64,000 nt of DNA, from contig JAFDGR010000002.1 in NCBI GenBank assembly GCA_019309145.1, positions 8,674 through 72,673 on the forward strand. The letters are read 5' to 3'. This document shows positions 15,861 to 30,250 of this stretch, in pieces. A program made the position numbers and the translations under genes. A model generated the notes under the pieces. It did not search any database and was not told where the DNA came from. It saw nothing but the letters and a program-made list of their open reading frames with translations. This DNA is from Deltaproteobacteria bacterium (GTDB lineage Bacteria > Desulfobacterota > DSM-4660 > Desulfatiglandales > Desulfatiglandaceae). Within the stretch, counting starts at the first letter, position 1, and each line of letters opens with the position of its first letter.

Positions 15861-16961
15861 ATGAAGCAGCTTTCTTTTCTGGACCGGCTCCTGACCCTGT
15901 GGATCTTTCTGGCCATGTTTGTGGGGGTGGGATGGGGGTATCTTTTCCCCGGTGTCAGGAACGTGATAAATTACTTCCAAGTGGGTACGACTAACATCCC
16001 CATTGCCATCGGCCTGATCCTGATGATGTACCCGCCTCTGGCAAAGGTGAAATACGAGGAGATGGGGTATGTATTCCGGGACTACAAGGTCCTTTTCCTC
16101 TCCCTGGTACAGAACTGGGTCATCGGTCCCATCCTTATGTTTCTGCTGGCCATTGCCTTCCTGTCCGGGCACCATGAATACATGGTGGGGCTCATCATGA
16201 TCGGTCTAGCGCGATGTATCGCCATGGTCCTGGTGTGGAATGACCTGGCTTCCGGTGACGCGGAATATTGTGCCGGGCTGGTAGCCTTTAACTCTGTTTT
16301 TCAGGTCCTCTTCTTTTCCCTCTATGCCTACATCTTTATTACCGTAATTCCCCAGTGGCTCGGGTTAAAGGGGGCCGTTGTGAACATCTCTATCGGACAG
16401 ATCGGGGAGAGCGTTTTTATTTACCTGGGGATCCCCTTTATAGCAGGTGTGCTCTCGCGGCTGATCGGGCTCAAGACCAAGGGCCGCGAATGGTATGAAA
16501 AGAAGTTTATCCCCAAGATCAGTCCCATTACCCTGATCGCACTGCTTTTTACGATCCTGGTCATGTTCTCCCTCAAAGGGGAATATATTGTCCAGCTTCC
16601 CTTGGACGTGGTTCGGGTGGCGATGCCCCTTTGCATCTATTTTGTGATTATGTTCTTTGTTTCATTTTATATGTCAATGAAGGTGGGCGCAACCTACGAG
16701 CAGTCAACCACCTTGAGCTTTACGGCCGCTTCCAACAACTTTGAGCTGGCAATTGCCGTGGCGGTAGCGGTCTTCGGCATTGATTCCGGCCAGGCCTTTG
16801 CTGCGGTCATTGGCCCCCTGGTGGAGGTGCCGGTGCTCATCAGCCTGGTCAACGTGGCATTGTGGTTCAAGCGGCGGTATTTTCCTTATGCCGTGGAGAC
16901 GCCTACCGGCGTATGCCACCTCACCTGCGAACCAGCAGCGGGTTCCCGGTTTCAGAAATGA
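15861..16961 (+). CDS. acr3: ACR3-family arsenite efflux permease
   Basis: [19 protein letters not shown]..., [54 protein letters not shown]. Confidence 0.9.
16826..16919. repeat. 94-bp block identical to 19567-19660 (3' end of acr3)
   Basis: Direct comparison shows the two copies are identical over 94 nt. The roughly 120 nt upstream are only about 87% identical, with mostly synonymous changes. Confidence 0.85.
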
Positions 16962-18645: not shown

Positions 18646-18951
18646 CTTGCACAGCAGCTTGGTTGTGAAATAGTAGAATTGAACATTAAAGCTGATCATG
18701 TGCATCTAATAACGAATGTTCCGCCCAAGGTTTCCATATCGCAATTGATGGGCACCCTAAAAGGGAGGACAGCGATCCGAGTTTTCAAACAATATCCATA
18801 CCTGAAGAAGAAGCCATATTGGGGCAACCACTTTTGGGCTAAAGGGTATTGTGTTGATACGATTGGTTTAGATCCCGAGATGATAAGAAAATACGTTCGC
18901 TGTCAAGAAGCGAAAGAGCGAGAACAAGAACAGCGAAGTTTTCAATTCTAA
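18646..18951 (+). pseudogene. tnpA: IS200/IS605-family tnpA remnant (5'-truncated; N-terminal HUH region missing)
   Basis: LAQQLGCEIVELNIKADHVHLITNVPPKVSISQLMGTLKGRTAIRVF...WGNHFWAKGYCVDTIG matches the C-terminal two thirds of IS200 TnpA. An in-frame stop lies at 18643. Confidence 0.75.
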
Positions 18952-19439: not shown

Positions 19440-19684
19440 CCAAATCCACAACCTTGAGCTTTATGGCCGCTTCCAACAATTTTGAGCTGTCCATCGCCGT
19501 GGCCGTGGCAGTGTTCGGGATCGACTCTGGCCAGGCCTTTGCGGCGCTCATCGGCCCCCTGGTGGGGGTGCCGGTGCTCATCAGCCTGGTCAACGTGGCA
19601 TTGTGGTTCAAGCGGCGGTATTTTCCTTATGCCGTGGAGACGCCTACCGGCGTATGCCACGTAACATGCGAACCATCGGCCTAA
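19440..19684 (+). pseudogene. acr3: 3'-terminal fragment (~79 codons) of a second acr3 gene
   Basis: [79 protein letters not shown] is paralogous to the 16690-16961 region. No upstream acr3 sequence is present. Confidence 0.8.
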
Positions 19685-19810: not shown

Positions 19811-19902
19811 AGTGAAAGGTTCTGTCTCTGTTATCAGCATTTTCTGATTAACTTCTTTTGACAAGCGTTGAATGACGCAAACAGATTGGTGAAGAATGCG
19901 AA

Positions 19903-21288
19903 ATGGGAGAAAAAGATATAACCCCTAGTCATACCTTGTTCACCTCATGCCGGATAACTTCCGGTGCCATATCTCCTTGCTGCATCATCCTGGAGAGTAT
20001 CAGTGACGGTGTTTTCACTATCGATCCGGACAAGAGAATCTCCTCTTTTAATCGGGCTGCAGAAAACATCACGGGTTTCCAGGCCGCTGAGGCAGTGGGG
20101 CATTTCTGCTTCGATATCTTCCGTGCCGACATTTGTGAAAAAAGATGCGCGCTCGACAGAACACTTGCGAGCGGCAATCCCCAGATAAATCTTCCGGCAA
20201 ATATTATTACCAAGAACGGGCGCCAGAAAATTATCAGCATCAGTACCTCTGTGCTGAAAAACGAAGTTGGGAAGATTATCGGGGCCGTGGAGACATTCAG
20301 GGACCTTTCTGAATTGCGGGAGCTGAGAAAGCATCTGACCCACAATTTTACGTCCGATGACATCGTTGGAAAACACCCGAAGATGCGCGAGATCCTCTCG
20401 TCACTTCCTGATATCGCGGCCAGTGAAAGCCCGGTGCTCATAGAAGGACCAACCGGGTCGGGCAAAGAATTGGTAGCCCGGGCCGTCCATTCCCTGAGCC
20501 CCCGAAAAAAAGGGCCTTTCGTCCCGGTAAACTGCGCGGCCCTGCCGGACACCCTTCTTGAATCAGAATTGTTCGGCTTTGCCAGAGGTGCTTTTACCGG
20601 GGCCGTCCGAAAAAAGGCTGGAAGATTCCTGTCAGCAAATAAGGGGACTATTTTCCTGGATGAAATTTCCAGTACGTCCATGGCGTTCCAGGTCCATCTC
20701 CTGAGGATCCTGGAAGACGGTGTGTTTACCCCCCTCGGGGAAACAAGACCGGTAAAGGCTGATTTTCGGGTAGTAACGGCCACAAACCATGATTTGAAGC
20801 AGTTGATGCGGGAAGGAAAGTTCAGGGAGGATCTCTACTTCAGACTGAATGTTGCCAAGATCAGCCTGCCGCCCCTCAGGGAAAGGAAGGAAGACATCCC
20901 GTTACTGATCAACCACTGCATTCAAAAATTCAATTTCATCAAGGGAAAGAACATACAGGGAGTGAGTCCTGAAGTTCTCTCATTTCTCATAGATTACCCT
21001 TTTCCCGGGAATATCCGCGAGCTGGAAAATATCATAGAATATGCCTTCATTTTGTGTAAAGGACCCACCATAGAAATGGACCACCTTTCAAAGGACCTCC
21101 TCGATGAACCGAGTGGCTGGTATCAGAGGACATATGAACCGGAAAGTCCGCAGGAGTTCAAAGAGCTGACAAAGATCCGGGCGGTACTGGAGCAGTGCCA
21201 AGGGAACCGCATTGAGGCAGCTCATGCTCTTGGTTTGAGCCGGACCACTCTCTGGCGCAAGATGAAAAAATACGGTCTCATGGGTTAA
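19903..21288 (+). CDS. Sigma-54-dependent transcriptional activator, PAS(Cys motif)-AAA+-Fis HTH, no receiver domain
   Basis: PAS domain with C69-x8-C78-x3-C82. AAA+ core shows GPTGSGKE, ESELFGFARGAFTGA (GAFTGA loop) and REDLYFRL. C-terminal HTH is GLSRTTLWRKMKKYG. Confidence 0.85.
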   Translation: MGEKDITPSHTLFTSCRITSGAISPCCIILESISDGVFTIDPDKRISSFNRAAENITGFQAAEAVGHFCFDIFRADICEKRCALDRTLASGNPQINLPANIITKNGRQKIISISTSVLKNEVGKIIGAVETFRDLSELRELRKHLTHNFTSDDIVGKHPKMREILSSLPDIAASESPVLIEGPTGSGKELVARAVHSLSPRKKGPFVPVNCAALPDTLLESELFGFARGAFTGAVRKKAGRFLSANKGTIFLDEISSTSMAFQVHLLRILEDGVFTPLGETRPVKADFRVVTATNHDLKQLMREGKFREDLYFRLNVAKISLPPLRERKEDIPLLINHCIQKFNFIKGKNIQGVSPEVLSFLIDYPFPGNIRELENIIEYAFILCKGPTIEMDHLSKDLLDEPSGWYQRTYEPESPQEFKELTKIRAVLEQCQGNRIEAAHALGLSRTTLWRKMKKYGLMG

Positions 21289-21328
21289 GAGAAGCGAAAA
21301 TCGATAAGGCGTTCATTTAGGGTAACCT

Positions 21329-24262
21329 ATGAATTACAAAGAGTTGCTCGAAAAATACAATCTCTTGTTAAGCGAGAACAGCCGCTTGGTAAGAGAAAAT
21401 GACAAGCTAAAGGCACAGATTGAGAAAACGAAGCGCAGGCCTGCTGAAAAGGAATTCACAGGTTCAACCGCAGAAAAAAACATGCTTGACAATGAACCGA
21501 CTGACAGCGCCTCGCTTTCAGGTGTAAACAACAGATCGGATTCGACCTCAAAAATTAGCCTATTTATGTCGCTTTTCAAAGGCCGTGATGATGTGTATGC
21601 GAAGAAATGGGAGAACAAAAAGAAGACAACATCGGGATATTCACCCGTTTGTCTGAATCAATGGGAGGTTGGATTGTGCGGCAAGCCAAAAGCCTCCTGT
21701 TCCAAATGCGCCAATCAGTTATATGACGCTTTGGATGATCATGTCATAGAAAACCATCTGAGAGGGAGTATCATTGTCGGTATCTATCCAATGCTTCCAG
21801 ATGAAACCTGCCACTTTTTAGCAATGGATTTTGATGAAGCCGGCTGGCAAGACGATGTCACAACAGTGAGAGAGGTTTGCGTCGAGTTTGATATTCCGGT
21901 GGCGGTGGAGCGGTCGCAATCCGGTAACGGCGCGCACCTGTGGTTTTTCTTTGAAAACCGATTGCCCGCTGCCTTAGCGAGAAAGTTTGGCACCGCCATT
22001 TTGACCTTTTCTATGAACAGGAGACATGAAATACATTTCAAATCATATGACAGATTGTTTCCCAGTCAGGACACAATGCCCAAAGGAGGTTTTGGCAATC
22101 TGATTGCTCTGCCATTCCAAAAATCTGCAAGGAAGAACAATAATAGCGAATTTATCGATGAAAGCTTTGAATCCTATAGTTATCAGTGGGCATTTTTGTC
22201 ATCGATTCAAAAGATTTCTGAAGACCGCATTAAGGATCTTATACAGAAGCTTTGTCATGACCATGAATTGGGGGCCTTGAAAATCGACGAAGAGGAACAA
22301 GGAAAGCCATGGGAAACACAACCAATCAGCCACCTGAAAAAAAGCGATTTTCCAGAGCAAATCGATATCGTGAAAGCAAATATGTTGTTTATTCCAAAGC
22401 GCAATATCTCCCAAAGGGCATTGAACCGATTGAAAAGATTGGCTTCTTTTAAAAACCCAATGTTTTACAAGCAGCAAGCCATGCGGTTGTCAACGTACGG
22501 ATACCCAAGGATTATCTCGTGTGCGGATGAAACGACGGACTATCTGTGTTTGCCGAGAGGCTGTGAAATGGACCTGCTGGCTGAATTAAAACAATATGGT
22601 ATAGATACTCATCTTATCGATAAGACCTATTGCGGGAAAAGAATAGATGTAGAATTCAACGGCCACTTAAGAGATGAACAACCTTTGGCCCTTGATCAGC
22701 TAATGCAGTATGATATTGGAATACTTTCAGGAACAACCGCTTTTGGGAAAACCATCGTAGCCATCAAGCTGATCGCCGAAAGAAAAGTCAATACCCTTAT
22801 CTTGGTGGATAGGATCGGCTTGCTCAAACAATGGCAGGAACGGTTATCTGAATTTTTGGTCATAAATGAAACCTTACCGGAACTGATTACTCCAGCAGGC
22901 AAAAAAAGAGGGAGAAACAAAAAGGCGGGCGTCATCGGCCAGATGGGCGGGGGCAAAAAAGCCCTAAGTGGTATTGTGGATATTGCCGTTATGCAATCCT
23001 TAAGCAGGAGGGGAGAGGTAAAGAATTGTGTCAAAGACTATGGGATGGTTATTGCGGATGAGTGTCATCATGCTTCGGCTTTCAGCTATGAAAGTATTCT
23101 GAAGGCCACAAATGCCAAGTATGTTTACGGCCTGACAGCCACACCGACACGAAAGGATGGACATCATCCCATACTTTTTATGCATTGCGGTCCAATACGG
23201 TATCGCGATAATGCAAAAAAGCAGGCAGAGAAGAGACCTTTTGACCACTATATCATTCCCCGGTTTACGCGCCTGAGAATTCCTTTGAATAGTGATGAAA
23301 AGGATATTTCCATCCAGGAATTGTATTCTGAAGTTATTGATAATGAACCCCGGAATCAGCAAATTGTCGAAGACGTTCTAGACAGCTATAAACGTGGCAG
23401 GAACTGCATTATTCTAACATTAAGAACCACTCATGTTGAACTGCTTGCGAAGAAATTAGGGGAAGAAATCTCGGATGTTGTGGTGCTGATGGGTGGAATG
23501 GGTTCAAAGACAACACGGGAGGTTCTTCAACGCATTAGGAACACGCCGGCAGATAAAAATCTGATATTGGTGGCTACAGGGCCTTTTATCGGAGAAGGCT
23601 TTGACGAACCTCGCCTTGATACGTTGTTCTTGACTATGCCGGTATCGTGGAAAGGCACACTCCAGCAATATGCCGGAAGACTTCATCGACTGTTTATGGA
23701 TAAAAAGGAAGTGCAGATCTATGATTATGTGGATATCCATGTAAGAATGCTGGAAAGAATGTATCAGAAAAGACTTACTGGGTATGCTTCGATGGGATAC
23801 AAAGCAAAAAGCGAAAATAACATGTCAGCATCATTGGATATTATTTTTGATAAGGACAGCTTTTTGCCTGTTTTCAGCAACGATGTTGCTGCCACAAAAA
23901 AAGAAATTTTAATGGTAAGCCCCTTTGTGAGAAAGAGGCGTTCAGTGCAAATGCTACAACACTTGAGAATCGCCGTTGACAAAGGCATCCGAGTCATTGT
24001 TGTGACAAGACCGGCAGAGGCTTTTGAAGCCAAAGATCGAGTTGCGTTGCAGCGAGTATTGGAGGTACTGGAAAACAACGATATAAGTGTTATTTTTAAA
24101 CCCAATATTCATCAAAAATTCGCAATCATGGATCAAAAGACTGTGTGGTATGGCAGCATCAATCTCTTGAGCTACGGCAATGCTCAGGAAAGCATCATGC
24201 GCATTGAAAGCCCCAATATCGCAAATGAGTTGATGAGAAGTGTAGAAAGCTTGAGCCCCTAA
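21329..24262 (+). CDS. Fusion protein: coiled coil + Cys4 + archaeo-eukaryotic primase (AEP) domain + SF2 DExH helicase + C-terminal HKD (PLD-family) nuclease
   Basis: AEP motifs are AMDFDE (aa 165-170), SGNGAHLWFFF (198-208) and YDRLFP (240-245). Helicase motifs are GTTAFGKT (468-475), DECHH (577-581), TATP (603-606) and QYAGRLHR (779-786). The PLD motif is HQKFAIMDQKTVWYGSIN (928-945), i.e. HxK-x4-D-x6-GSxN. Confidence 0.8.
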   Translation: MNYKELLEKYNLLLSENSRLVRENDKLKAQIEKTKRRPAEKEFTGSTAEKNMLDNEPTDSASLSGVNNRSDSTSKISLFMSLFKGRDDVYAKKWENKKKTTSGYSPVCLNQWEVGLCGKPKASCSKCANQLYDALDDHVIENHLRGSIIVGIYPMLPDETCHFLAMDFDEAGWQDDVTTVREVCVEFDIPVAVERSQSGNGAHLWFFFENRLPAALARKFGTAILTFSMNRRHEIHFKSYDRLFPSQDTMPKGGFGNLIALPFQKSARKNNNSEFIDESFESYSYQWAFLSSIQKISEDRIKDLIQKLCHDHELGALKIDEEEQGKPWETQPISHLKKSDFPEQIDIVKANMLFIPKRNISQRALNRLKRLASFKNPMFYKQQAMRLSTYGYPRIISCADETTDYLCLPRGCEMDLLAELKQYGIDTHLIDKTYCGKRIDVEFNGHLRDEQPLALDQLMQYDIGILSGTTAFGKTIVAIKLIAERKVNTLILVDRIGLLKQWQERLSEFLVINETLPELITPAGKKRGRNKKAGVIGQMGGGKKALSGIVDIAVMQSLSRRGEVKNCVKDYGMVIADECHHASAFSYESILKATNAKYVYGLTATPTRKDGHHPILFMHCGPIRYRDNAKKQAEKRPFDHYIIPRFTRLRIPLNSDEKDISIQELYSEVIDNEPRNQQIVEDVLDSYKRGRNCIILTLRTTHVELLAKKLGEEISDVVVLMGGMGSKTTREVLQRIRNTPADKNLILVATGPFIGEGFDEPRLDTLFLTMPVSWKGTLQQYAGRLHRLFMDKKEVQIYDYVDIHVRMLERMYQKRLTGYASMGYKAKSENNMSASLDIIFDKDSFLPVFSNDVAATKKEILMVSPFVRKRRSVQMLQHLRIAVDKGIRVIVVTRPAEAFEAKDRVALQRVLEVLENNDISVIFKPNIHQKFAIMDQKTVWYGSINLLSYGNAQESIMRIESPNIANELMRSVESLSP

Positions 24263-24270
24263 CCGACGAC

Positions 24271-24432
24271 ATGGCCGACGAGGAAAAACTGGTCATTATT
24301 CAACGCGAGTTTGACCGCCTCTACGACCCCGGCCATCCGGTGCGCAACAATTTGGAGACCCTGGACTCGGTTGAAGAGGTGCGGATTATCAGGGAGGCGA
24401 TTAAGAATAGGGAATTAAGAATAGGGAATTAA
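24271..24432 (+). CDS. Possible 53-aa ORF or gene remnant whose 3' end is made of the 14-bp tandem repeat
   Basis: MADEEKLVIIQREFDRLYDPGHPVRNNLETLDSVEEVRIIREAIKNRELRIGN. No family was recognised, and the last 11 codons are repeat-derived. Confidence 0.2.
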   Translation: MADEEKLVIIQREFDRLYDPGHPVRNNLETLDSVEEVRIIREAIKNRELRIGN

Positions 24433-24441
24433 GAATAGGGA
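24400..24441. repeat. Three perfect tandem copies of a 14-bp unit ATTAAGAATAGGGA
   Basis: Units lie at 24400-24413, 24414-24427 and 24428-24441, followed by a partial ATGGGGAATT. Confidence 0.9.
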
Positions 24442-24824
24442 ATGGGGAATTGAAAGTCGATATTTGTGAGAGGACATTTGCTTTTGCAGTGCGGGTTGTG
24501 AAATTGTGCCAGTTTCTTGATGAGACACCGAGGGTTGGACGAACCCTGGCCAGGCAACTTATCCGGTCTGGGGCTTCCATTGGTGCCAATGTCGAGGAGG
24601 CCCAAGCTGGACAAAGCCGGGCTGACTTTTTGTCGAAGATGTCGATTGCATATAAAGAAGCCCGTGAAACCCTGTACTGGTTAAAACTGCTTGCTGCATC
24701 TGAGGTCATGCCGATGGAACGTCTGAGCGAAATGATGGATGAAGCAAACGAGCTCGTGGCTATTTTGACGTCAATTATCAAATCTACCAAAGCCATCGCT
24801 CAATGAATTCACCATTCCCTATTC
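24433..24824. repeat. Inverted repeats exactly bracketing the four-helix-bundle ORF
   Basis: GAATAGGGAATGG (24433-24445) is the perfect reverse complement of CCATTCCCTATTC (24812-24824). The match extends to 18/20 (24433-24452 vs 24805-24824), and the arms contain the TTG start and the TGA stop. Confidence 0.85.
24450..24806 (+). CDS. Four-helix-bundle protein (23S rRNA intervening-sequence protein family)
   Basis: FAFAVRVVKLCQFL...LARQLIRSGASIGANVEEAQAGQSRADFLSKMSIAYKEARETLYWLKLL is the hallmark of this family. TTG start. Confidence 0.8.
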   Translation: MKVDICERTFAFAVRVVKLCQFLDETPRVGRTLARQLIRSGASIGANVEEAQAGQSRADFLSKMSIAYKEARETLYWLKLLAASEVMPMERLSEMMDEANELVAILTSIIKSTKAIAQ

Positions 24825-24858
24825 AAAATTCACTATTCCAAGACAGAGTCTTGATCCA

Positions 24859-25256
24859 ATGACAGTTGATCGTCCAATTGAATACCTGGTCAGTATCGTG
24901 CAGGAGTTGCGGAAGCTTCCAGAGGAAACGGAATGGGTCGAGTTCAAGCACAACAGAGACAACCCGGAGGAGATCGGCGAATATATCTCAGCTCTTGCAA
25001 ACGCGGCAGCGGGGTAGATAAAAGAGAAATGGACAAGGAAGACCGTGTTCGAGCCTGCTATCTGCACGCCTGCCTGCGTTATGTTCAACGGGACTTCATG
25101 ACCAATCCCACCCTGCGGGACCGTTTCGGAATTGAAGCCAAAAACAGCGCTACTGCATCCAGAATTATCAAAGAGACTTTGGAAACCGGAAAGATCCGGC
25201 CCTATGATGAAGCAGCAGCCAAAAAATTTATGAAATATGTACCATGGTGGGCGTGA
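24859..25256 (+). pseudogene. AlbA_2/Schlafen-type putative DNA-binding regulator (RecG-like annotation class) with large internal deletion and frameshift
   Basis: N-terminal 52 codons (MTVDRPIEYLVSIVQELRKLPEETEWVEFKHN...ISALANAAAG) end at TAG 25015. The C-terminal HTH part (RACYLHACLRYVQRDFMTNPTLRDRFGI...YVPWWA) continues in another frame to 25256. Confidence 0.6.
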
Positions 25257-25270
25257 TGGGGAAACGGATT

Positions 25271-25655
25271 TTTATTTGATGGGTATTTGATATGAAGAAG
25301 GCCACTCCCCTTAAGGATATAAATAATGTCCACGATATCCATAGGTTGTGCTTGAAGTTTCTATTTGATGGGTATTTGATTCCTGCTAAGAAGGCTGAAG
25401 CCGCCCCGAAGGGCGGCCTCGTTACTCCTTCCACACATGGTAGATGAGCTTAAGGTAGTATCGGCTCAAAATGCAGAAAAGTCAAGATTTATTTTTGATT
25501 AAGGCTAAGGCCATGGTGGACCTGAGTGCCGGAGCGTGAAGGATGATTTATTTGATCGTTGTTTGATTGAAAGGTGTTCAATTTCTTCCAGAGAAGGTAT
25601 ATTCGCCGTCTTTTCAGGTGGTTATGAATTTAAGTTTATTTGACTGTTATTTGAT
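25271..25655. repeat. Field of five bipartite TTTATTTGAT-N3-TATTTGAT iteron-like motifs
   Basis: TATTTGATGGGTATTTGAT is perfect at 25273-25291 and 25362-25380. Degenerate copies lie at 25488-25500, 25547-25567 and 25635-25655. Spacings are about 89-90, 127, 58 and 88-89 bp. Confidence 0.7.
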
Positions 25656-25725
25656 GCGAACCAATGGAGAAGTCTGCTTTGGTATCAGTTCTGAACCCAA
25701 GTATTGTGTGCTCTAAGGGTGTCGA

Positions 25726-26034
25726 ATGAAAATCAAAACTATCAAACTTACCAACTACAAGGCCTTCTACGGCACTTATGAAATACCTGTAGGCGGCAAG
25801 AATCTGTTCATATACGGCGAGAACGGCAGCGGTAAAAGCTCGCTCTATTATGCCCTGAAGGACTTTTTCCAATCTTCCATGGAAAATATCGATCTCAAGG
25901 AAGTTGAGAATATCTTTATCAAGGATACCGTTAAAGGCAAGTGTTCTATCAAGATCACCTTCAATACCAAGATTCCAGGGACCCGTAAACAAACAAAAAC
26001 TTTTGAATGTACGGCTACATCAAATGGAAAATAG
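25726..26034 (+). pseudogene. N-terminal stub (102 aa) of an SMC/RecF/OLD-type AAA ATPase
   Basis: MKIKTIKLTNYKAFYGTYEIPVGGKNLFIYGENGSGKSSLYYALKDFF gives a Walker A only. There is no Walker B or signature region in any downstream frame. Confidence 0.55.
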
Positions 26035-26156
26035 GGGGACGTTGTTGACTAATTACACTTATTTCTTGTTGCGCACTATTGAAAAGCCTGGCTGGGGCTT
26101 CTTCCAGCATAGGTGCTCGGAAGACCTTAAAGCTTTAGACATGGCAGGGAGATCCC

Positions 26157-26471
26157 GTGACCTTTTACACTGAACCAACAGGGTATGAAAAGACGGCACT
26201 TTCAGATTTGCAGGGTGCCTGGGGAAATCTTCGTGAGGAAGTGGTTGAGGCCCAACCATTTCCGGAGCGGGAGAGGATTCTGTTTCACATAGATGAAGCG
26301 ATGAGCTGGGAAAGTGTGCGGAATTTGGAACAGATGCGAAACACATTGCTCCTGATTCAGAACATCGCTGCTCAATCTGAGGTCCCTGATGAAGTGTCAG
26401 AATGGATAACGATTATTAGAGAAAATCTGGATGAGGTTTTCATTGCCGTTGAAGAAGGGAAAGCGGTTTAG
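26157..26471 (+). CDS. Hypothetical acidic protein
   Basis: 104-aa ORF that ends 18 nt before the next gene. No family was recognised. Confidence 0.35.
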   Translation: MTFYTEPTGYEKTALSDLQGAWGNLREEVVEAQPFPERERILFHIDEAMSWESVRNLEQMRNTLLLIQNIAAQSEVPDEVSEWITIIRENLDEVFIAVEEGKAV

Positions 26472-26489
26472 AGGAGACAATAGAGAAAG

Positions 26490-27380
26490 ATGTATAAAGT
26501 AGTCCAAGACATTCTGGATGTTTTTGACCGGGATGATATAGAGGAATATCCCAGAGCTACAATAGATCAGGCACTGGAGCACGAGAAGGAACTGACTCCA
26601 CACCTGATAAAAATCCTGGAAAATGTGCTCAGAGATCCTGCGGCCATTCTTTCCCGTGAGAGATTTTTCGGCCATATTTTTGCTCTGAACCTCTTGGCTC
26701 ATTTTAGAAACCTGGAAGCGCACGAAACCGTTGTCAATCTGATGTCACTACCAGGAGATGTTGTCAGCGATTTGTTCGGAGATATGGTCACGGAGGATTT
26801 TCCACGGATTCTGTATCAGACATGTGGGGGTGAATATGAAAGAATAAAGGGGTTGATTTTAAACAAGGAGGCATATGAATATGTTCGTGGCTCGGCCATG
26901 AAGGCAATCGTCTTTGGAGTATTGCTGGGTGACCTTCCCCGTTCACGGGCACTGGATTTTTTTGGGGGATTGTTCACAGGAAATGAGGCAGAGAACTCAT
27001 CGTATTTTTGGGATGGTGCTGCATCCTGTGTCTGCGATCTTTATCCGGAAGAGCTACTGGATACAATAAAGGACGCTTACAACCGAGGGCTGATATGGCC
27101 TGGATACATTGGCATAGAGAGCTTTGACAGCGCCTTGTCTGAAAACAGAGATGATTTCCTTACCAAAAAGAGGAAGAGAATAGAAAGCTCAATAAGAGAA
27201 GATTTCCACAGCTATATGTCATGGTGGGCCTGCTTTGATAAGGACGTTTCGTCGTCTCTTGGAAAAGGGGTGGATAACAAGAATCACAGACCATCTTCCA
27301 AAGGCAGCAATAAAAAGAGGAAAAAGAAGACCAGAAAAAGGATAAGCAAGGCGAGCAGAAAGAAAAACAGGAGGCGTTAG
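26490..27380 (+). CDS. Hypothetical protein, DUF1186-like, with Lys/Arg-rich C-terminal tail
   Basis: 296 aa. The helical-repeat-like body (PHLIKILENVL..., FFGHIFALNLLAHF) is as I remember DUF1186. The tail is SSKGSNKKRKKKTRKRISKASRKKNRRR. Confidence 0.45.
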   Translation: MYKVVQDILDVFDRDDIEEYPRATIDQALEHEKELTPHLIKILENVLRDPAAILSRERFFGHIFALNLLAHFRNLEAHETVVNLMSLPGDVVSDLFGDMVTEDFPRILYQTCGGEYERIKGLILNKEAYEYVRGSAMKAIVFGVLLGDLPRSRALDFFGGLFTGNEAENSSYFWDGAASCVCDLYPEELLDTIKDAYNRGLIWPGYIGIESFDSALSENRDDFLTKKRKRIESSIREDFHSYMSWWACFDKDVSSSLGKGVDNKNHRPSSKGSNKKRKKKTRKRISKASRKKNRRR

Positions 27381-27766
27381 AGGTCTTGTAACGCTCAAGA
27401 ACATTGCAGGATGGATCATGCAACTTATACCGGAACAACTAGTAGAGGGCATAGGGGCCTTGATCCTTGTACGTGGAGATGGGGACAATCCTATGTCAGA
27501 AGTTCGTAGTGCAGGAGAGATAACAGGCGGGCCGCCACCTCTGAGAAAGCGTGATCGATCCCGTTTTCTTCAACGGCCCGATGAAGTGATTCAATCAATC
27601 CGTCATGAGCAACCGCATAATCGCACTTGACATCGGCTTGACAGGGAGAGGATGTAGTTTGATAAATAGGGGCAGTGTATCCGCTCAATGAATAGCGCAA
27701 TGCAGACAACGCAGGGTCGCGACCGGGAGGTCGCTCCTATAAAATTAATGCATGACCAGGAGAACT

Positions 27767-30250
27767 ATGGCTTCCCCAAACCATGAACTGGGACTCGCCA
27801 ACGACTTTGTTCAGTACACCGGGTGCAATATTTTTCTGACGGGGAAGGCGGGCACAGGCAAAACAACCTTTCTCCATAATCTGCATAAAAACACGGCAAA
27901 GAGGATGATTGTTACCGCGCCAACGGGCGTTGCGGCTATCAATGCCGGCGGGGTAACACTCCATTCTTTTTTTCAGTTGCCTTTTGGCCCATTTGTACCG
28001 GGTAGCGAAGCATACGAGCGGAATAAACAGCGCCGCTTCAGGTTCAGTAAGGAAAAAAAGCGGATTATACAAAGCCTTGATTTGCTGGTGATTGACGAAA
28101 TAAGCATGGTACGGGCAGATTTACTCGATGCGGTGGATGCTGTCCTGCGCGGCCATCGCCGGAACAATCAGCCCTTTGGCGGGGTGCAGTTGCTTCTGAT
28201 CGGCGATCTCTATCAGCTTTCTCCGGTGGCCAAACAAGATGAATGGCATCTTTTGGAGCAATATTATGAGTCGGTTTATTTCTTCAGCAGCAAAGCGCTG
28301 AATCTTACTGAACTGATTACCATTGAACTGACGCATATTTTTCGCCAGTCAGACGCCCGTTTTATCAAGCTCCTGAATCGGGTACGTGATAACCGGCTTG
28401 ATGAATCATCCATAGCTGATCTTAATCTCCGTTACATTCCGAATTTTACACCCGGTGAAGATCAGGGTTATATTACCCTGACCACCCACAACCGAAACGC
28501 CGAATCCATCAATCAGACCAGGCTTGACGGCTTGCCCAAAAAGGAACACCGTTTCAAGGCTGAAGTTTCCGGAGATTTTCCTGAACATAACTACCCGACC
28601 CTGGCCACTCTTCTGCTGAAAGAGGGAGCACAGGTTATGTTCGTGCGCAATGATCCCTCTGCTGAAAAACGCTACTACAATGGGAAGATTGGTAAAATAA
28701 CCAAAATTTCGAACAAAAGCATCAGGGTTATCTGTCCCGGTGACAAACAGGAAATCGTGGTTGAACCAATCATTTGGGAGAATATTAAATACACACTGAA
28801 CGAAGAAACAAAGGAAATTGAAGAGGAGATAATCGGTCAATTCAAGCAATACCCCCTGAAACTCGCATGGGCAATCACCATCCACAAAAGCCAGGGGCTG
28901 ACTTTTGAAAAGGCCATTATTGATGCCAAAGCAGCTTTTGCGCATGGTCAAATTTACGTGGCCTTAAGCCGTTGTAAAAGTTTAGAGGGCATGGTGCTGA
29001 GCGCTCCCCTCTCATCTAAGGGAATAGAAACGGACGAAGCTATAAGGGGCTTTGACGAAAACGCCCGCCAAAACCCGCCCACCGAAAGCCGGCTTCAGAA
29101 AGCCAAAATCAACTACCAGCAGCAGCTAGTGCTTGATTGTTTCGATTTTTCCTTATTGCGCAACCGGCTCAATTATCTTGCCCGGATTTTGCTGGGAAAC
29201 GCCGGAGTTGTGCAGGTTTCAGGCGTTGAAGATATCCGCCAACTGCAGAAAAAGGCTGCGGAAAGCATTTTTGTTGTCAGTGAAAATTTTAAGCGGCAAT
29301 TACGCACAATTTTTGCGAATGGCGGTTTGCCCGAGTCAGATGCAGTTATTTTGGAACGGATTGGCAAGGCGTCAGCGTGGTTTCAGGGAAAGTTCGCCGA
29401 AATTTTTGGGGAGTCAGTGCCTAGATTGCATGTAGAAACAGATAACACTGAACTCCGTAAGAAAATTGACAACGCGTTGAATAATCTCAAAAAGGAAATT
29501 GCCGTAAAGGTAGTCGGCGTGCAATCTTGTGAGAAAGGATTTACTCCGTCAAGATTCCTGCGTGCCGTTTCAGCCGCTGAGATCGACTTTACCCCTGAAA
29601 AAGAAAAAAAGCGCCGGCCCCCAGTCTACACCGAAGCGGACGTTGCCCATCCGGAGCTTTTCCAGACCCTGAAGGAGTGGCGTTCCCGCAAGGCCAGGGA
29701 GGAAGAGGTCGCCCATTTTCAAGTCTTACATCAACAAGTACTGCTCCAGATTGCGGTATGCCTGCCCGGCAGTACTGCTGATTTGATGAAGATAAAGGGG
29801 GTCGGCAAGAAAACCATTGAAAAATACGGTGAAGAATTGGTGAAACTGGTTTTGGCCTATCGCGAAAAACACGGGATAAAAAAGATCTTACCGCCGCAGC
29901 CTGAGAAATTTCCTAAAGAAAATACCCTGGAAAAATATGCTGCTCCAACTTACAATACAAAACAGATAAGTTTCGATATGTTCAATAACGGGTTGACGAT
30001 TGACCGGATTGCACAGGAAAGAGGACTGGTGCAATCGACCATTGAAACGCACCTGACTTTTTTCGTGGAAAAAGGTAAACTGGATATCAATAAATTGCTT
30101 TCACCTGAAAAACAAAAGGCCATTGAAAAGGAACTTGCTTCAGATCACCATAATTCCCTCAGCGAAGTAAAAAATGCCCTGGGAGATGACTATTCCTATG
30201 GAGAAATCAAAATGATGTTGGCCTATCAGAAACACCTGGCATCAGAATAA
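27767..30250 (+). CDS. Pif1/RecD-like SF1B helicase with C-terminal HRDC and HTH domains
   Basis: NIFLTGKAGTGKTT, VTAPTGVAAINAGGVTLHSFF, LLVIDEISMV, AITIHKSQGLTF. An HRDC-like IKGVGKKTIEKYGEEL and a terminal HTH LTIDRIAQERGLVQSTIETHL follow. ATG 27767 has an AGGAGA RBS, and an alternative ATG lies at 27752. Confidence 0.8.
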   Translation: MASPNHELGLANDFVQYTGCNIFLTGKAGTGKTTFLHNLHKNTAKRMIVTAPTGVAAINAGGVTLHSFFQLPFGPFVPGSEAYERNKQRRFRFSKEKKRIIQSLDLLVIDEISMVRADLLDAVDAVLRGHRRNNQPFGGVQLLLIGDLYQLSPVAKQDEWHLLEQYYESVYFFSSKALNLTELITIELTHIFRQSDARFIKLLNRVRDNRLDESSIADLNLRYIPNFTPGEDQGYITLTTHNRNAESINQTRLDGLPKKEHRFKAEVSGDFPEHNYPTLATLLLKEGAQVMFVRNDPSAEKRYYNGKIGKITKISNKSIRVICPGDKQEIVVEPIIWENIKYTLNEETKEIEEEIIGQFKQYPLKLAWAITIHKSQGLTFEKAIIDAKAAFAHGQIYVALSRCKSLEGMVLSAPLSSKGIETDEAIRGFDENARQNPPTESRLQKAKINYQQQLVLDCFDFSLLRNRLNYLARILLGNAGVVQVSGVEDIRQLQKKAAESIFVVSENFKRQLRTIFANGGLPESDAVILERIGKASAWFQGKFAEIFGESVPRLHVETDNTELRKKIDNALNNLKKEIAVKVVGVQSCEKGFTPSRFLRAVSAAEIDFTPEKEKKRRPPVYTEADVAHPELFQTLKEWRSRKAREEEVAHFQVLHQQVLLQIAVCLPGSTADLMKIKGVGKKTIEKYGEELVKLVLAYREKHGIKKILPPQPEKFPKENTLEKYAAPTYNTKQISFDMFNNGLTIDRIAQERGLVQSTIETHLTFFVEKGKLDINKLLSPEKQKAIEKELASDHHNSLSEVKNALGDDYSYGEIKMMLAYQKHLASE

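Follow-up and report, generated by a model that had tools for sequence, protein, structure and literature searches.

Organization of the locus

The window (the whole stretch of DNA that was analyzed, 64,000 nucleotides long) contains on its forward strand a complete open reading frame for a protein of 977 amino acids (21329..24262), with an ATG start, a stop codon at 24260-24262 and no internal stops. A preliminary description, made from the sequence alone, had read this frame as one uninterrupted polypeptide combining an archaeo-eukaryotic primase (AEP) domain, a superfamily 2 (SF2) DExH helicase and an HKD/PLD nuclease. This reading held. The profile searches that it had proposed were all significant (Pfam AEP-TOTE, PF22548, E=5.5e-99; ResIII, E=6.6e-20; Helicase_C, E=1.5e-6; PLDc_2, E=4.6e-11), and the Cys4, DxD, sxH, YDRLFP aspartate, helicase and HKD motifs all lie where it had placed them. 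The label "TOTE," which it had mentioned, does exist: Pfam uses it for the domain, and NCBI PGAP names homologues likewise.

The gene is preceded by a short conserved leader that includes the ribosome-binding site (21300..21328, forward strand). Blastn similarity to three related loci (L001, L004, and L046) starts at 21300, and the aligned upstream sequences have ...TCGATAGGGCAyTCA..GTTTGAGGTAAAAT-ATG in common; to judge from these alignments, the leader is the sole flanking DNA that moves together with the gene. DNA similarity to 59 related loci ends at the boundaries of the reading frame. No sigma-70-like promoter was found immediately 5' of the gene. A gene for a sigma-54 activator ends 40 nt before it, and the two genes form a block that the nearest relative has as well, a linkage that could reflect regulated, host-integrated use.

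As described earlier, the gene is richer in AT than its flanks: its GC content is 43.1% versus 50.2% for the whole window, and its GC3 is 46% versus 58-69% in core neighbors. The low-GC stretch continues past the gene to ~30250, and from its composition the gene looks foreign. Decayed defense-type genes, also reported previously, were found downstream as two remnants, a Schlafen/AlbA_2 fragment with a weak match (24859-25014) and the 102-aa N terminus of an AriA/PtuA/GajA-like ATPase (25726-26031). A truncated IS200-like transposase gene lies upstream (18679-18948), and the window has no tRNA genes.

The primase-polymerase and helicase domains

The structure model and weak profile matches assign a helix or coiled coil to the N terminus (aa 1-35; 21329..21433, forward strand). 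The coiled coil of 40 residues that had been proposed here is borne out insofar as a helix is predicted (aa 3-34, pLDDT 78-88), whereas the leucine-zipper-type profile matches are weak; the segment is a candidate dimerization element. Column conservation is 0.72 in this helix versus 0.50 in the little-conserved linker that follows (aa 36-74; 21434-21550, forward strand).

The AEP domain (aa 75-303; 21551..22237, forward strand) is defined by the PF22548 match and belongs to the Z1568-like/IEE family (IEE, IS-excision enhancer). Its catalytic residues are the DxD pair D167/D169 (LAMDFDE), H203 of the sxH motif (GNGAHLW) and a third acidic residue, D241 (YDRLFP), with Y153 as the sugar selector by alignment to Y128 of IEE. 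Within the domain lies a Cys4 cluster, a putative zinc site (C108, C117, C124, and C127; 21650..21709, forward strand), which is also present in IEE and in 111 of 127 family representatives. The closest solved AEP structure is that of the CRISPR-associated Prim-Pol CAPP (PDB 7NQD/7NQE/7NQF), likewise a Prim-Pol clade enzyme, with E=5e-8 for 7nqd in the PDB search and a target-normalized TM-score of 0.47-0.49 in Foldseek. In addition, the PADLOC model for Cas-associated PrimPol (PDLC01465) matches the domain at 9.6e-89. However, CAPP has no such SF2 helicase or PLD fusion, and the gene in the window has no CRISPR-Cas linkage. Membership in CAPP was rejected: the NCBIfam model NF040561 scores 96.7 bits against a cutoff of 200, and no cas family was found among the neighbors.

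A conserved middle region (aa 304-445; 22238..22663, forward strand) connects the AEP domain to the helicase. A Pfam scan of this region gave no match, but it aligns with IEE from end to end and has a column conservation of 0.81; the structure model is of poor quality in this part. The SF2 DExH helicase/translocase core follows (aa 446-830; 22664..23818, forward strand), with the ResIII match over aa 446-608, further profile matches to XPB (4e-12) and RadD (4.9e-11), and PDB matches to XPBII (7.9e-19) and UvsW (1.6e-4). Its motifs are Walker A, GTTAFGKT (K474); DECHH (577-581); TATP (603-606); and motif VI, QYAGRLHR (780-787), with Q780, R784, and R787. These similarities class the helicase as an XPB/RadD/UvsW-like, monomeric repair-type SF2 enzyme and not as a replicative hexamer or an SF3, SF4, or MCM helicase.

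Relationship to IEE

The preliminary description knew of no experimentally characterized system with this exact fusion. It had missed that the AEP-helicase core has a characterized counterpart: aa 75-833 align in one continuous stretch with IEE of E. coli O157:H7 (ECs1305; Z1568-like AEP family), a full-length homologue of this part, at 44% identity (332/761 residues, E=0). The sequence used for comparison was the 786-aa O157:H7 protein WP_000233452.1, which we took to be IEE on three grounds: its length agrees, K451 and R735 fall where they were published, and its gene is part of an integrative element and lies beside an integrase. IEE itself matches Pfam AEP-TOTE (1.7e-98). The catalytic residues published for IEE (PMC9943667) are all kept in the window protein: D142, D144, H178, D216, and Y128 align with D167, D169, H203, D241, and Y153, and K451 and R735 align with K474 (the Walker A lysine) and R784 (the arginine finger). 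Published activities of IEE are IS excision, polymerization, microhomology end-joining and ATP hydrolysis (PMC9943667), and experimental data for the family are confined to transposon excision by the E. coli protein.

The two proteins share the AEP-TOTE, ResIII and Helicase_C domains as well as the Cys4 cluster and have comparable short segments at the N terminus, and both genes lie in horizontally acquired DNA. However, IEE stops after the helicase, whereas the window protein has ~140 additional residues that form a PLD domain with an intact HKD motif. Given the homology of residues 75-833, the gene is, on sequence grounds, a member of the IEE family in which an HKD nuclease follows the IEE core at the C terminus.

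This family is already catalogued and comprises as many as 2,492 clusters (50% identity) at E<=1e-30. Among 127 representatives, the AEP tetrad is kept in 119 and the helicase motifs in 115. In an alignment of 34 close homologues (69-90% identity), all the AEP, Cys4, helicase and PLD motif residues listed here are invariant, a pattern showing that in the window clade these four sites are intact and under purifying selection at the sequence level. The AEP-helicase core and the family are thus already known, and what appears to be new is an intact HKD nuclease joined to the IEE core; our literature search for a PLD-bearing variant of the IEE family found no paper.

The C-terminal nuclease domain

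The PLD-superfamily nuclease domain (aa 836-977; 23834..24259, forward strand; PLDc_2 match over aa 855-974) has a single HKD catalytic motif, HQKFAIMDQKTVWYGSIN (aa 928-945; 24110..24163, forward strand), in which H928, K930, D935, G942, S943, and N945 conform to the pattern HxK(x)4D(x)6GSxN. In profile comparisons, the domain resembles nuclease-type members of the superfamily: PLD3 exonuclease (1e-4), the motif of which aligns with that of the window protein, Zucchini (8e-4) and Nuc (0.01). The structural check proposed in the preliminary description gave matches to single domains, with NucT as the Foldseek match here (target-normalized TM-score 0.68-0.69; pLDDT ~62-86 over aa 841-940) in addition to CAPP for the AEP part, but the whole-protein model is poor (mean pLDDT 50.5) and has no bearing on domain geometry or dimerization. 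The motif, and probably the PLD fold, is common to Nuc, NucT, Zucchini/PLD6 and the PLD3/4 exonucleases; these are small stand-alone nucleases, whereas the PLD domain of the window protein is part of one chain with a polymerase and a translocase. Two subunits build one active site in Nuc and NucT.

All 116 full-length close homologues have an intact HKD motif. In the wider family, 44 of the 127 representatives lack a PLD-like domain and 83 have one; the catalytic histidine or lysine is replaced in 76 of these, and only 7 have an intact HKD motif. Since most PLD-like domains in the family lack the catalytic residues, cleavage is not required for the core function of the family. Even in the window protein this domain may serve mainly for DNA binding or dimerization. 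On the other hand, column conservation in the PLD domain of the window clade (0.78, versus 0.83-0.85 in the other domains) counts in favor of the nuclease, and its sequence features are apparently those of an active DNA-cutting domain.

Genomic neighborhood and distribution

To characterize the context, we classified the two nearest genes on each side at 58 related loci (132 neighbors) and considered the 25 commonest of 122 families. The commonest are DUF4143/AAA_14 (PADLOC candidate PDC-S01), AbiEii/AbiEi, Fic and PIN, and type I restriction-modification (RM) specificity subunits (Methylase_S) occur at two loci. PDC-S01 lies immediately upstream in at least 6 loci and is absent from the window. 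At the locus of an orthologue with 99% identity, the genes that immediately follow encode an HKD+Snf2 protein and a type IIG restriction enzyme, and on IMG/VR contigs, relatives adjoin Abi_2, Fic, AlbA_2 and type I RM genes. Thus, the defense and toxin-antitoxin neighbors anticipated in the preliminary description were found at related loci; the integrase, Rep or partition genes that it had considered as the alternative were not found among the 25 commonest families, and neither cas nor other repair genes were conserved nearby. Clustering of neighbors across the 59 related loci gave an AAA_14/DUF4143 ATPase as the largest cluster, shared by at most 17, and the gene appears to be stand-alone, with no conserved partner.

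Disrupted copies occur at ~16 of the 59 loci, and a copy in Sporomusa (Bacillota) is 65% identical, which points to horizontal transfer. With its patchy distribution, horizontal transfer and frequent pseudogenes, this is not a housekeeping gene, as had been proposed.

Family members without the PLD domain were found inside Tn3-type transposons, beside a tyrosine recombinase trio and beside TniQ, so the whole family lives among mobile elements. PLD-less relatives are frequent on plasmids (284 records). On plasmids, the relatives lie in transposition modules, apart from the RepA of the plasmid. A gut clade (42% identity) with a catalytically dead PLD domain forms a conserved module beside two tandem tyrosine integrases, and the gene for E. 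coli IEE is part of an integrative element, with an integrase gene ~7 kb away. The relatives of IEE are thus found in integrative elements and transposons, whereas the window clade is found in toxin-antitoxin, Abi and RM-type islands. GenBank phages gave helicase-domain matches only.

Comparison with defense and repair systems

A helicase-plus-PLD logic is also seen in Mokosh MkoC and in DISARM DrmC with DrmD. The PADLOC check gave domain-level matches to the PLD part (MkoC, 1.6e-12; DrmC, 1.2e-7), as it did for the AEP domain, but no whole-protein system model. The helicases of Mokosh and DISARM belong to other families, these systems have no AEP domain, and there is no full-length match. Functional analogies for a machine that cuts, unwinds and fills are offered by archaeal XPB-Bax1, in which XPB, the closest solved helicase, acts with a partner nuclease, and by bacterial LigD, an AEP enzyme with several domains (AEP polymerase, phosphoesterase and ligase) by which DNA ends are processed and joined. 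However, neither has whole-protein homology to the window protein, both are repair systems that are not island-borne, and the window protein lacks the ligase domain of LigD.

Proposed function

Our preferred reading, to which we give a probability of about 0.55, is that the gene encodes a horizontally acquired, stand-alone conflict enzyme that uses IEE-like biochemistry and its own nuclease against mobile or invading DNA, and not a protein for replication or housekeeping. By analogy with IEE, the AEP domain would be an Mn2+-dependent DNA polymerase that pairs and extends 3' ends via short microhomologies, and the helicase domain would be a DNA-dependent ATPase that stabilizes the protein on DNA and aids the approach of the ends. 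Two copies would have to dimerize, possibly via the N-terminal coiled coil, so that two HKD motifs form one PLD active site, which would act on DNA by cutting or trimming. The breaks for which IEE relies on a transposase could thereby be made or processed by the enzyme itself. In the proposed order of events, the protein would load on aberrant DNA (foreign DNA or an intermediate of transposition or replication), the PLD domain would cleave it, the helicase domain would translocate or remodel, and microhomology-templated synthesis by the AEP domain would leave the element excised or deleted, or the invader destroyed. In nature, the enzyme may be directed against transposable elements (IS or transposons), plasmids or phages. 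The defense-island context suggests such a role through guilt by association.

It is possible, although we hold it with less confidence, that the protein is a classical single-gene anti-phage or anti-plasmid effector, which would degrade invader DNA or poison replication by aberrant priming, IS excision in its relatives being a side effect. The mostly defense and toxin-antitoxin neighbors, including PDC-S01, the restriction enzyme and HKD+Snf2 genes beside the closest orthologue, the ATPase remnants in the window and the neighbors on IMG/VR contigs all agree with this, and both Pfam and PGAP class the AEP domain under "conflict system." However, PADLOC has domain-level matches only, our literature search found no report of phage defense, and the experiments on the family all concern transposon excision. 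This explanation overlaps the conflict enzyme proposed above and differs from it only in the target.

The preliminary description had also considered the replication-initiation protein of a decayed integrated element; on this view, the protein would be a primase-helicase that started the replication of a plasmid, an ICE or a prophage. Mobile elements typically use AEP-helicase fusions as their replicases (PMC5862659), and the plasmid-borne relatives, the integrative element of E. coli IEE and the integrases of the gut clade would fit this role. Nevertheless, the neighborhood data largely refute it for the window clade, since integrase, Rep and partition families are missing from the window and from the 25 commonest neighbor families. 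The window also lacks a tRNA gene, the helicase is of the repair type, relatives on plasmids keep apart from RepA, phages have only helicase-domain matches, and a nuclease domain is unexpected in an initiator. In published work, IEE is dispensable for the replication of any element. We therefore regard an initiator as very improbable.

We give equally little credence to a multi-gene TOTE system in which the protein is the effector and a TPR-OB sensor and a TBP protein are encoded elsewhere in the genome. TOTE stands for TPR, OB, TBP, and Effector (Aravind, Iyer and Burroughs 2022, as cited in bioRxiv 10.1101/2025.09.15.676423). It is true that the Pfam model for the TOTE effector primase matches the AEP domain and that the PGAP names of homologues follow it. 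However, a scan of the window from 6.5 to 35.7 kb (ORFs of >=150 aa) gave no TPR, cold-shock/S1, or TBP family, nor is any of these among the 25 commonest neighbor families; no partner is common to more than 17 of the 59 loci, and E. coli IEE functions when transferred alone to another host. By the definition as cited there, the gene is not part of a TOTE system in the defining sense, as the TPR-OB and TBP partners are absent from the ORFs and neighbor families scanned.

Finally, a host repair enzyme (of the microhomology-mediated end-joining or excision-repair type, or a CRISPR-associated Prim-Pol for spacer acquisition) is highly unlikely: in vitro end joining by IEE (PMC9943667), the likeness to XPB and RadD, the XPB-Bax1 partnership, an SRAP gene upstream in Desulfosarcina variabilis and the CAPP-like AEP domain with its PADLOC match would agree with it, but the gene is patchy, horizontally transferred and often a pseudogene, lies in variable islands of foreign composition, has no conserved cas or repair neighbors and falls short of the CAPP cutoff.

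For annotation, the label "TOTE conflict system AEP domain-containing protein" is no proof of a TOTE system. For the family, these results make IEE the nuclease-less branch of a much larger group, in which a C-terminal PLD domain is common, mostly catalytically dead, and intact in a few clades, including the window clade from Desulfobacterales. To our knowledge, no dedicated factor other than IEE, whether of the host or of a mobile element, removes insertion sequences, and the mechanism of IEE is still debated.

More speculatively, and in our estimate improbably, the HKD-intact minority of the IEE family, including the window protein, could be autonomous cut-unwind-rejoin machines. One polypeptide would recognize and, through its PLD nuclease, cleave either an inserted element or an intermediate of mobile DNA, and the host DNA would then be resealed by AEP-driven, microhomology-mediated synthesis. 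If so, transposons or invading replicons would be excised or inactivated without the transposase of the element. This would be an immunity that cleans the genome by itself and differs from restriction, CRISPR and abortive infection. Comparing an HKD-intact member with IEE would test directly whether cleavage is the step that IEE borrows from transposases, and the same comparison would bear on anti-transposon, anti-plasmid or anti-phage immunity.

Domain architecture of the protein

The gene occupies positions 21329-24262 on the forward strand of the window as a single, ATG-started, unbroken ORF of 977 codons. All of the motifs listed for it in the preliminary description were recovered at the same residues: a Cys4 cluster (C108, C117, C124, and C127), the AEP motifs (D167/D169, H203, and D241), the helicase motifs GTTAFGKT (including K474), DECHH, TATP, and QYAGRLHR, and the PLD HKD motif HQKFAIMDQKTVWYGSIN (aa 928-945; window 24110-24163). 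The claim that three domains are combined in one polypeptide was borne out by HMM searches with Pfam profiles, which matched AEP-TOTE (aa 75-303, E=5.5e-99), ResIII (aa 446-608, E=6.6e-20) together with Helicase_C (E=1.5e-6), and PLDc_2 (aa 855-974, E=4.6e-11). The catalytic residues of all domains are invariant in 34 homologs of 69-90% identity. As assignments made by profile searches, these domains are beyond doubt.

Relatives with solved structures are XPB (7.9e-19) and UvsW for the helicase, the CRISPR-associated Prim-Pol CAPP (5e-8) for the AEP domain, and PLD3 exonuclease, Zucchini, and Nuc for the C-terminal domain. An AlphaFold2 model of the full protein, built from the 34-sequence alignment (69-90% identity), was poor (mean pLDDT 50.5, pTM 0.31) and was used for coarse Foldseek matches only, not for geometry. 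Even so, the matches to this low-confidence model (XPB, NucT with a target-normalized TM-score of 0.68, Zucchini, and CAPP) agree with the relatives identified by profiles.

The protein is an IS-excision enhancer core with an added PLD domain

Searches of plasmids with tblastn identified many relatives with 42-45% identity, all of which cover only aa ~66-826, that is, the protein without its PLD part. Through one of these plasmid relatives, we arrived at a chromosomal gene of E. coli O157:H7, the 786-aa product of which is named by PGAP 'TOTE conflict system archaeo-eukaryotic primase domain-containing protein'. We identify this product as the IS-excision enhancer, IEE (WP_000233452.1), by its published length, by its location within an integrative element with an integrase nearby, and by the positions of its Walker A lysine (K451) and arginine finger (R735), which match those reported for IEE (Calvo et al. 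2023, PMC9943667).

Residues 75-833 of the window protein align continuously with IEE (332 of 761 positions identical, E=0), and the IEE catalytic residues D142, D144, H178, D216, and Y128 (PMC9943667) correspond to D167, D169, H203, D241, and Y153. The Pfam matches of IEE are the same as those of the window protein, minus the PLD domain. Taken together, the alignment, the matching catalytic residues, and the shared domains identify the ORF, on sequence grounds, as an IEE core (coiled coil, Cys4-AEP, middle region, and SF2 helicase) with an additional C-terminal PLD domain. Apart from the two-domain architecture, the gene has every sequence feature of the IEE/Z1568-like family, and we put the probability that it belongs to this family at about 0.97.

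The preliminary description had seen the sequence correctly but overestimated its novelty, because its reader did not know of IEE. The family is already catalogued in Pfam and by PGAP. In the literature searched, we found no AEP-helicase-PLD defense system and no PLD-bearing relative of IEE, and earlier comparative genomics may already describe the architecture. Judged by its sequence, the window gene is best described as a PLD-bearing variant of a known family.

A near-full-length IEE gene is present in 684 E. coli genomes, and a further ~1,160 genomes of this species have only a short 5' remnant, which in the PGAP annotation is a pseudogene of the IEE family. The remnant in Nissle 1917 (locus L063:7001-7211) lies among IS elements in a region resembling a pathogenicity island.

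Family size and integrity of the nuclease motif

This is a very large family, with at least 8,000 candidates in one search, the best 120 of which share the three-domain architecture; at E≤1e-30, it comprises 2,492 clusters at 50% identity. In an alignment of 127 representatives, each of at least 740 aa, the C-terminal domain is absent, as in IEE, from 44; in 76 it is PLD-like with the catalytic His and/or Lys replaced and the Asp, WYG, and Asn mostly kept; and in 7 it has an intact HxK..D. The catalytic His and/or Lys are therefore replaced in 76 of the 83 PLD-bearing representatives, and the intact HKD motif of the window's clade is the exception. The AEP tetrad is retained in 119 of the 127 representatives and the helicase motifs in 115; the PLD nuclease is dispensable for the core activity of the family. 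In a rough neighbor-joining tree, most proteins without the PLD domain, IEE included, form one large cluster, and sequences with an intact HKD motif are interspersed among the degenerate ones. This pattern suggests an ancestor with an active nuclease and repeated loss, for which the tree is too crude to serve as proof. Within the window's clade, the HKD motif is present in all 116 full-length homologs, and the conservation of the PLD domain (0.78) is nearly that of the other domains (0.83-0.85), which argues that the predicted nuclease is probably functional in this clade.

Genomic context of the gene

As the preliminary description had noted, the ORF is AT-richer than its flanks: its GC content is 43.1%, compared to 50.2% for the window, and its GC3 is 46%, compared to 58-69% in neighboring core genes. 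It begins a low-GC stretch of ~9 kb (21329-30250, 45.1% GC) that is flanked by a sigma-54 activator and a histidine-kinase/response-regulator pair. The decayed defense-type neighbors reported earlier were also found; downstream of the ORF are an N-terminal remnant (102 aa) of an AriA/PtuA/GajA-type ATPase and a weak, 52-aa N-terminal fragment of an AlbA_2/Schlafen protein. No tRNA gene that might mark an integration site was found in the window, and a promoter and terminator scan was uninformative.

The window and a relative with a 99%-identical ortholog (L064) share one block, 19881-24249, which is 98.9% identical and beyond which the DNA differs on both sides. In that relative, the sigma-54 activator is kept upstream and the downstream genes differ, encoding an HKD+Snf2 helicase and a type IIG restriction-modification enzyme. 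Thus, the gene is at the edge of a variable, defense-type hotspot. It is a stand-alone gene in foreign DNA.

Several further features of this region were recorded. The ATPase and AlbA_2/Schlafen pieces are two of three gene remnants in 24859-26031; the third, a 107-aa ORF without a Pfam match, may be the C-terminal remnant of a regulator of the AlbA_2/Schlafen kind. Intact AlbA_2-HATPase_c_4 genes directly adjoin family members at two loci (L069 and L096). Closer to the ORF, a 14-nt unit is perfectly repeated in tandem (ATTAAGAATAGGGA x 3.1; 24400-24443); this repeat is overlapped by a 53-codon ORF without a family match (24271-24432) and lies immediately 5' of a gene for a 118-aa four-helix bundle (24450-24806) of the '23S rRNA intervening sequence protein' family (PF05635, 1.9e-21). 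The end of the low-GC island (26490-30250) has two genes, one for a DUF1186 protein whose tail is rich in lysine and arginine, the other for a PIF1-type helicase of 832 aa (HRDC, HTH_40) with only weak matches to PADLOC candidates PDC-S68 and PDC-M16A. Upstream of the ORF, the 3' end of an SBF transporter gene is duplicated (16711-16934 and 19443-19675; ~90% identity over ~230 nt), and the 2.5-kb segment between the copies contains a truncated IS200-like transposase (18679-18948) and two partial ArsP-type permease ORFs, one of them fused to a Nitro_FeMo-Co domain. Other genes occupy this position in the 99% relative, so that a second variable site closely precedes the block with the activator and the gene.

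Related loci and alternative identities

A survey limited to one genome per species yielded 59 loci, mostly from Desulfobacterales, with outlying copies in Sporomusa (65% identity) and Clostridia (47%). Clustering of the neighbors at these 59 loci revealed no conserved partner gene. The most common families among the 132 nearest neighbors are DUF4143/AAA_14, AbiEii, AbiEi_4, Fic, HTH_3, and PIN; other neighbors include SRAP, type I RM specificity subunits, and transposases. The DUF4143/AAA_14 ATPase (~410 aa), which matches PADLOC candidate PDC-S01 at 2.3e-143, is the most frequent immediate neighbor in Desulfobacterales (12 of the 132 neighbors). It lies directly upstream on the same strand at no fewer than six loci (L001, L028, L038, L045, L050, and L051) and downstream on the opposite strand at two (L014 and L015), and the window has no such gene. 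This adjacency may reflect functional pairing or only a shared island habitat.

Disrupted copies (frameshifted, truncated, or interrupted by insertions) were found at ~16 of the 59 loci (L022, L025, L033, L036, L039, L041, L042, L044, L049, L050, L052, and others), including that of Sporomusa acidovorans. A number of genomes harbor a pair of copies, and contigs often break off within the gene. Together, these observations suggest rapid turnover of the gene and, possibly, a fitness cost.

The label 'TOTE conflict system', mentioned in the preliminary description, is a genuine PGAP/Pfam name, and the AEP domain of that name is present. However, the TPR-OB and TBP partners that define these systems (Aravind et al. 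2022, as cited in bioRxiv 10.1101/2025.09.15.676423) are, on the definition as cited there, absent from the ORFs of at least 150 aa scanned at 6.5-35.7 kb of the window and from the most common neighbor families of the related loci. Neither TPR, TBP, nor cold-shock proteins, nor integrase, Rep, or Par, are among the 25 most common families of the 132 nearest neighbors; the suggestion that the gene is the replication initiator of an integrated element was accordingly not borne out in the window's clade. A self-mobile single-gene element was rejected: DNA similarity between the loci and the window stops at the ORF ends, save for a leader of roughly 30-70 nt, no terminal inverted or direct repeats were found flanking the gene, and the second copy in D. 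variabilis lies between the same genes as the first, which fits a segmental duplication. The sigma-54 activator was excluded as a part of the system, because the two genes occur together in the 99% relative alone, an arrangement that other species do not share. Identity with CAPP was dismissed on a score under the curated cut-off and no cas linkage among the neighbor families reported.

Distant relatives in mobile elements

On plasmids, IEE-like genes that lack the PLD domain are carried as cargo in transposition modules (L060:7250-13187; L067:4250-8157; L066:4833-10748; L068:3790-7427). They lie between the resolvase and transposase of Tn3-family elements in E. albertii and Pantoea stewartii, next to three tyrosine recombinases in Dinoroseobacter, and after TniQ in Sinorhizobium. 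IMG/VR contained no close relatives, and distant ones were found by a profile-based scan only; GenBank phages gave helicase-domain matches only. Among the IMG/VR sequences, a gut-metagenome clade with 42% identity to the window protein carries a catalytically dead PLD domain, with H replaced by S and K by C. Its gene follows HTH_17 genes, a gene for a ~230-aa HTH-like protein, and DUF3307, and two tandem tyrosine integrases come next on the other strand (contigs L074-L085, L097, and L099). This module resembles an integrative element of which a family member is a constant component.

Proposed function

The polymerase, ATPase, and nuclease motifs of the window protein are all intact as read from its sequence. 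The polymerase activity of the IEE AEP domain depends on Mn2+, prefers dNTPs, and extends 3' ends paired via microhomologies of at least 4 bp; the helicase of IEE is a DNA-dependent ATPase that stabilizes DNA binding and synapsis rather than performing classical unwinding (PMC9943667). By analogy, it is likely that the window protein has the same core activities: its AEP domain would be a Mn2+-dependent, dNTP-preferring polymerase extending 3' ends paired at microhomologies, and its helicase a DNA-dependent ATPase stabilizing DNA binding and synapsis. A single PLD active site would be assembled from two subunits, perhaps joined through the N-terminal coiled coil; this site is predicted to nick or trim DNA and so supply the breaks for which IEE needs a transposase. 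The enzyme would load onto foreign DNA at an intermediate of transposition or replication, where cutting, remodeling, and microhomology-templated synthesis would follow, and the element would be excised or destroyed. A role against mobile DNA is the function that we favor for this gene, if only slightly.
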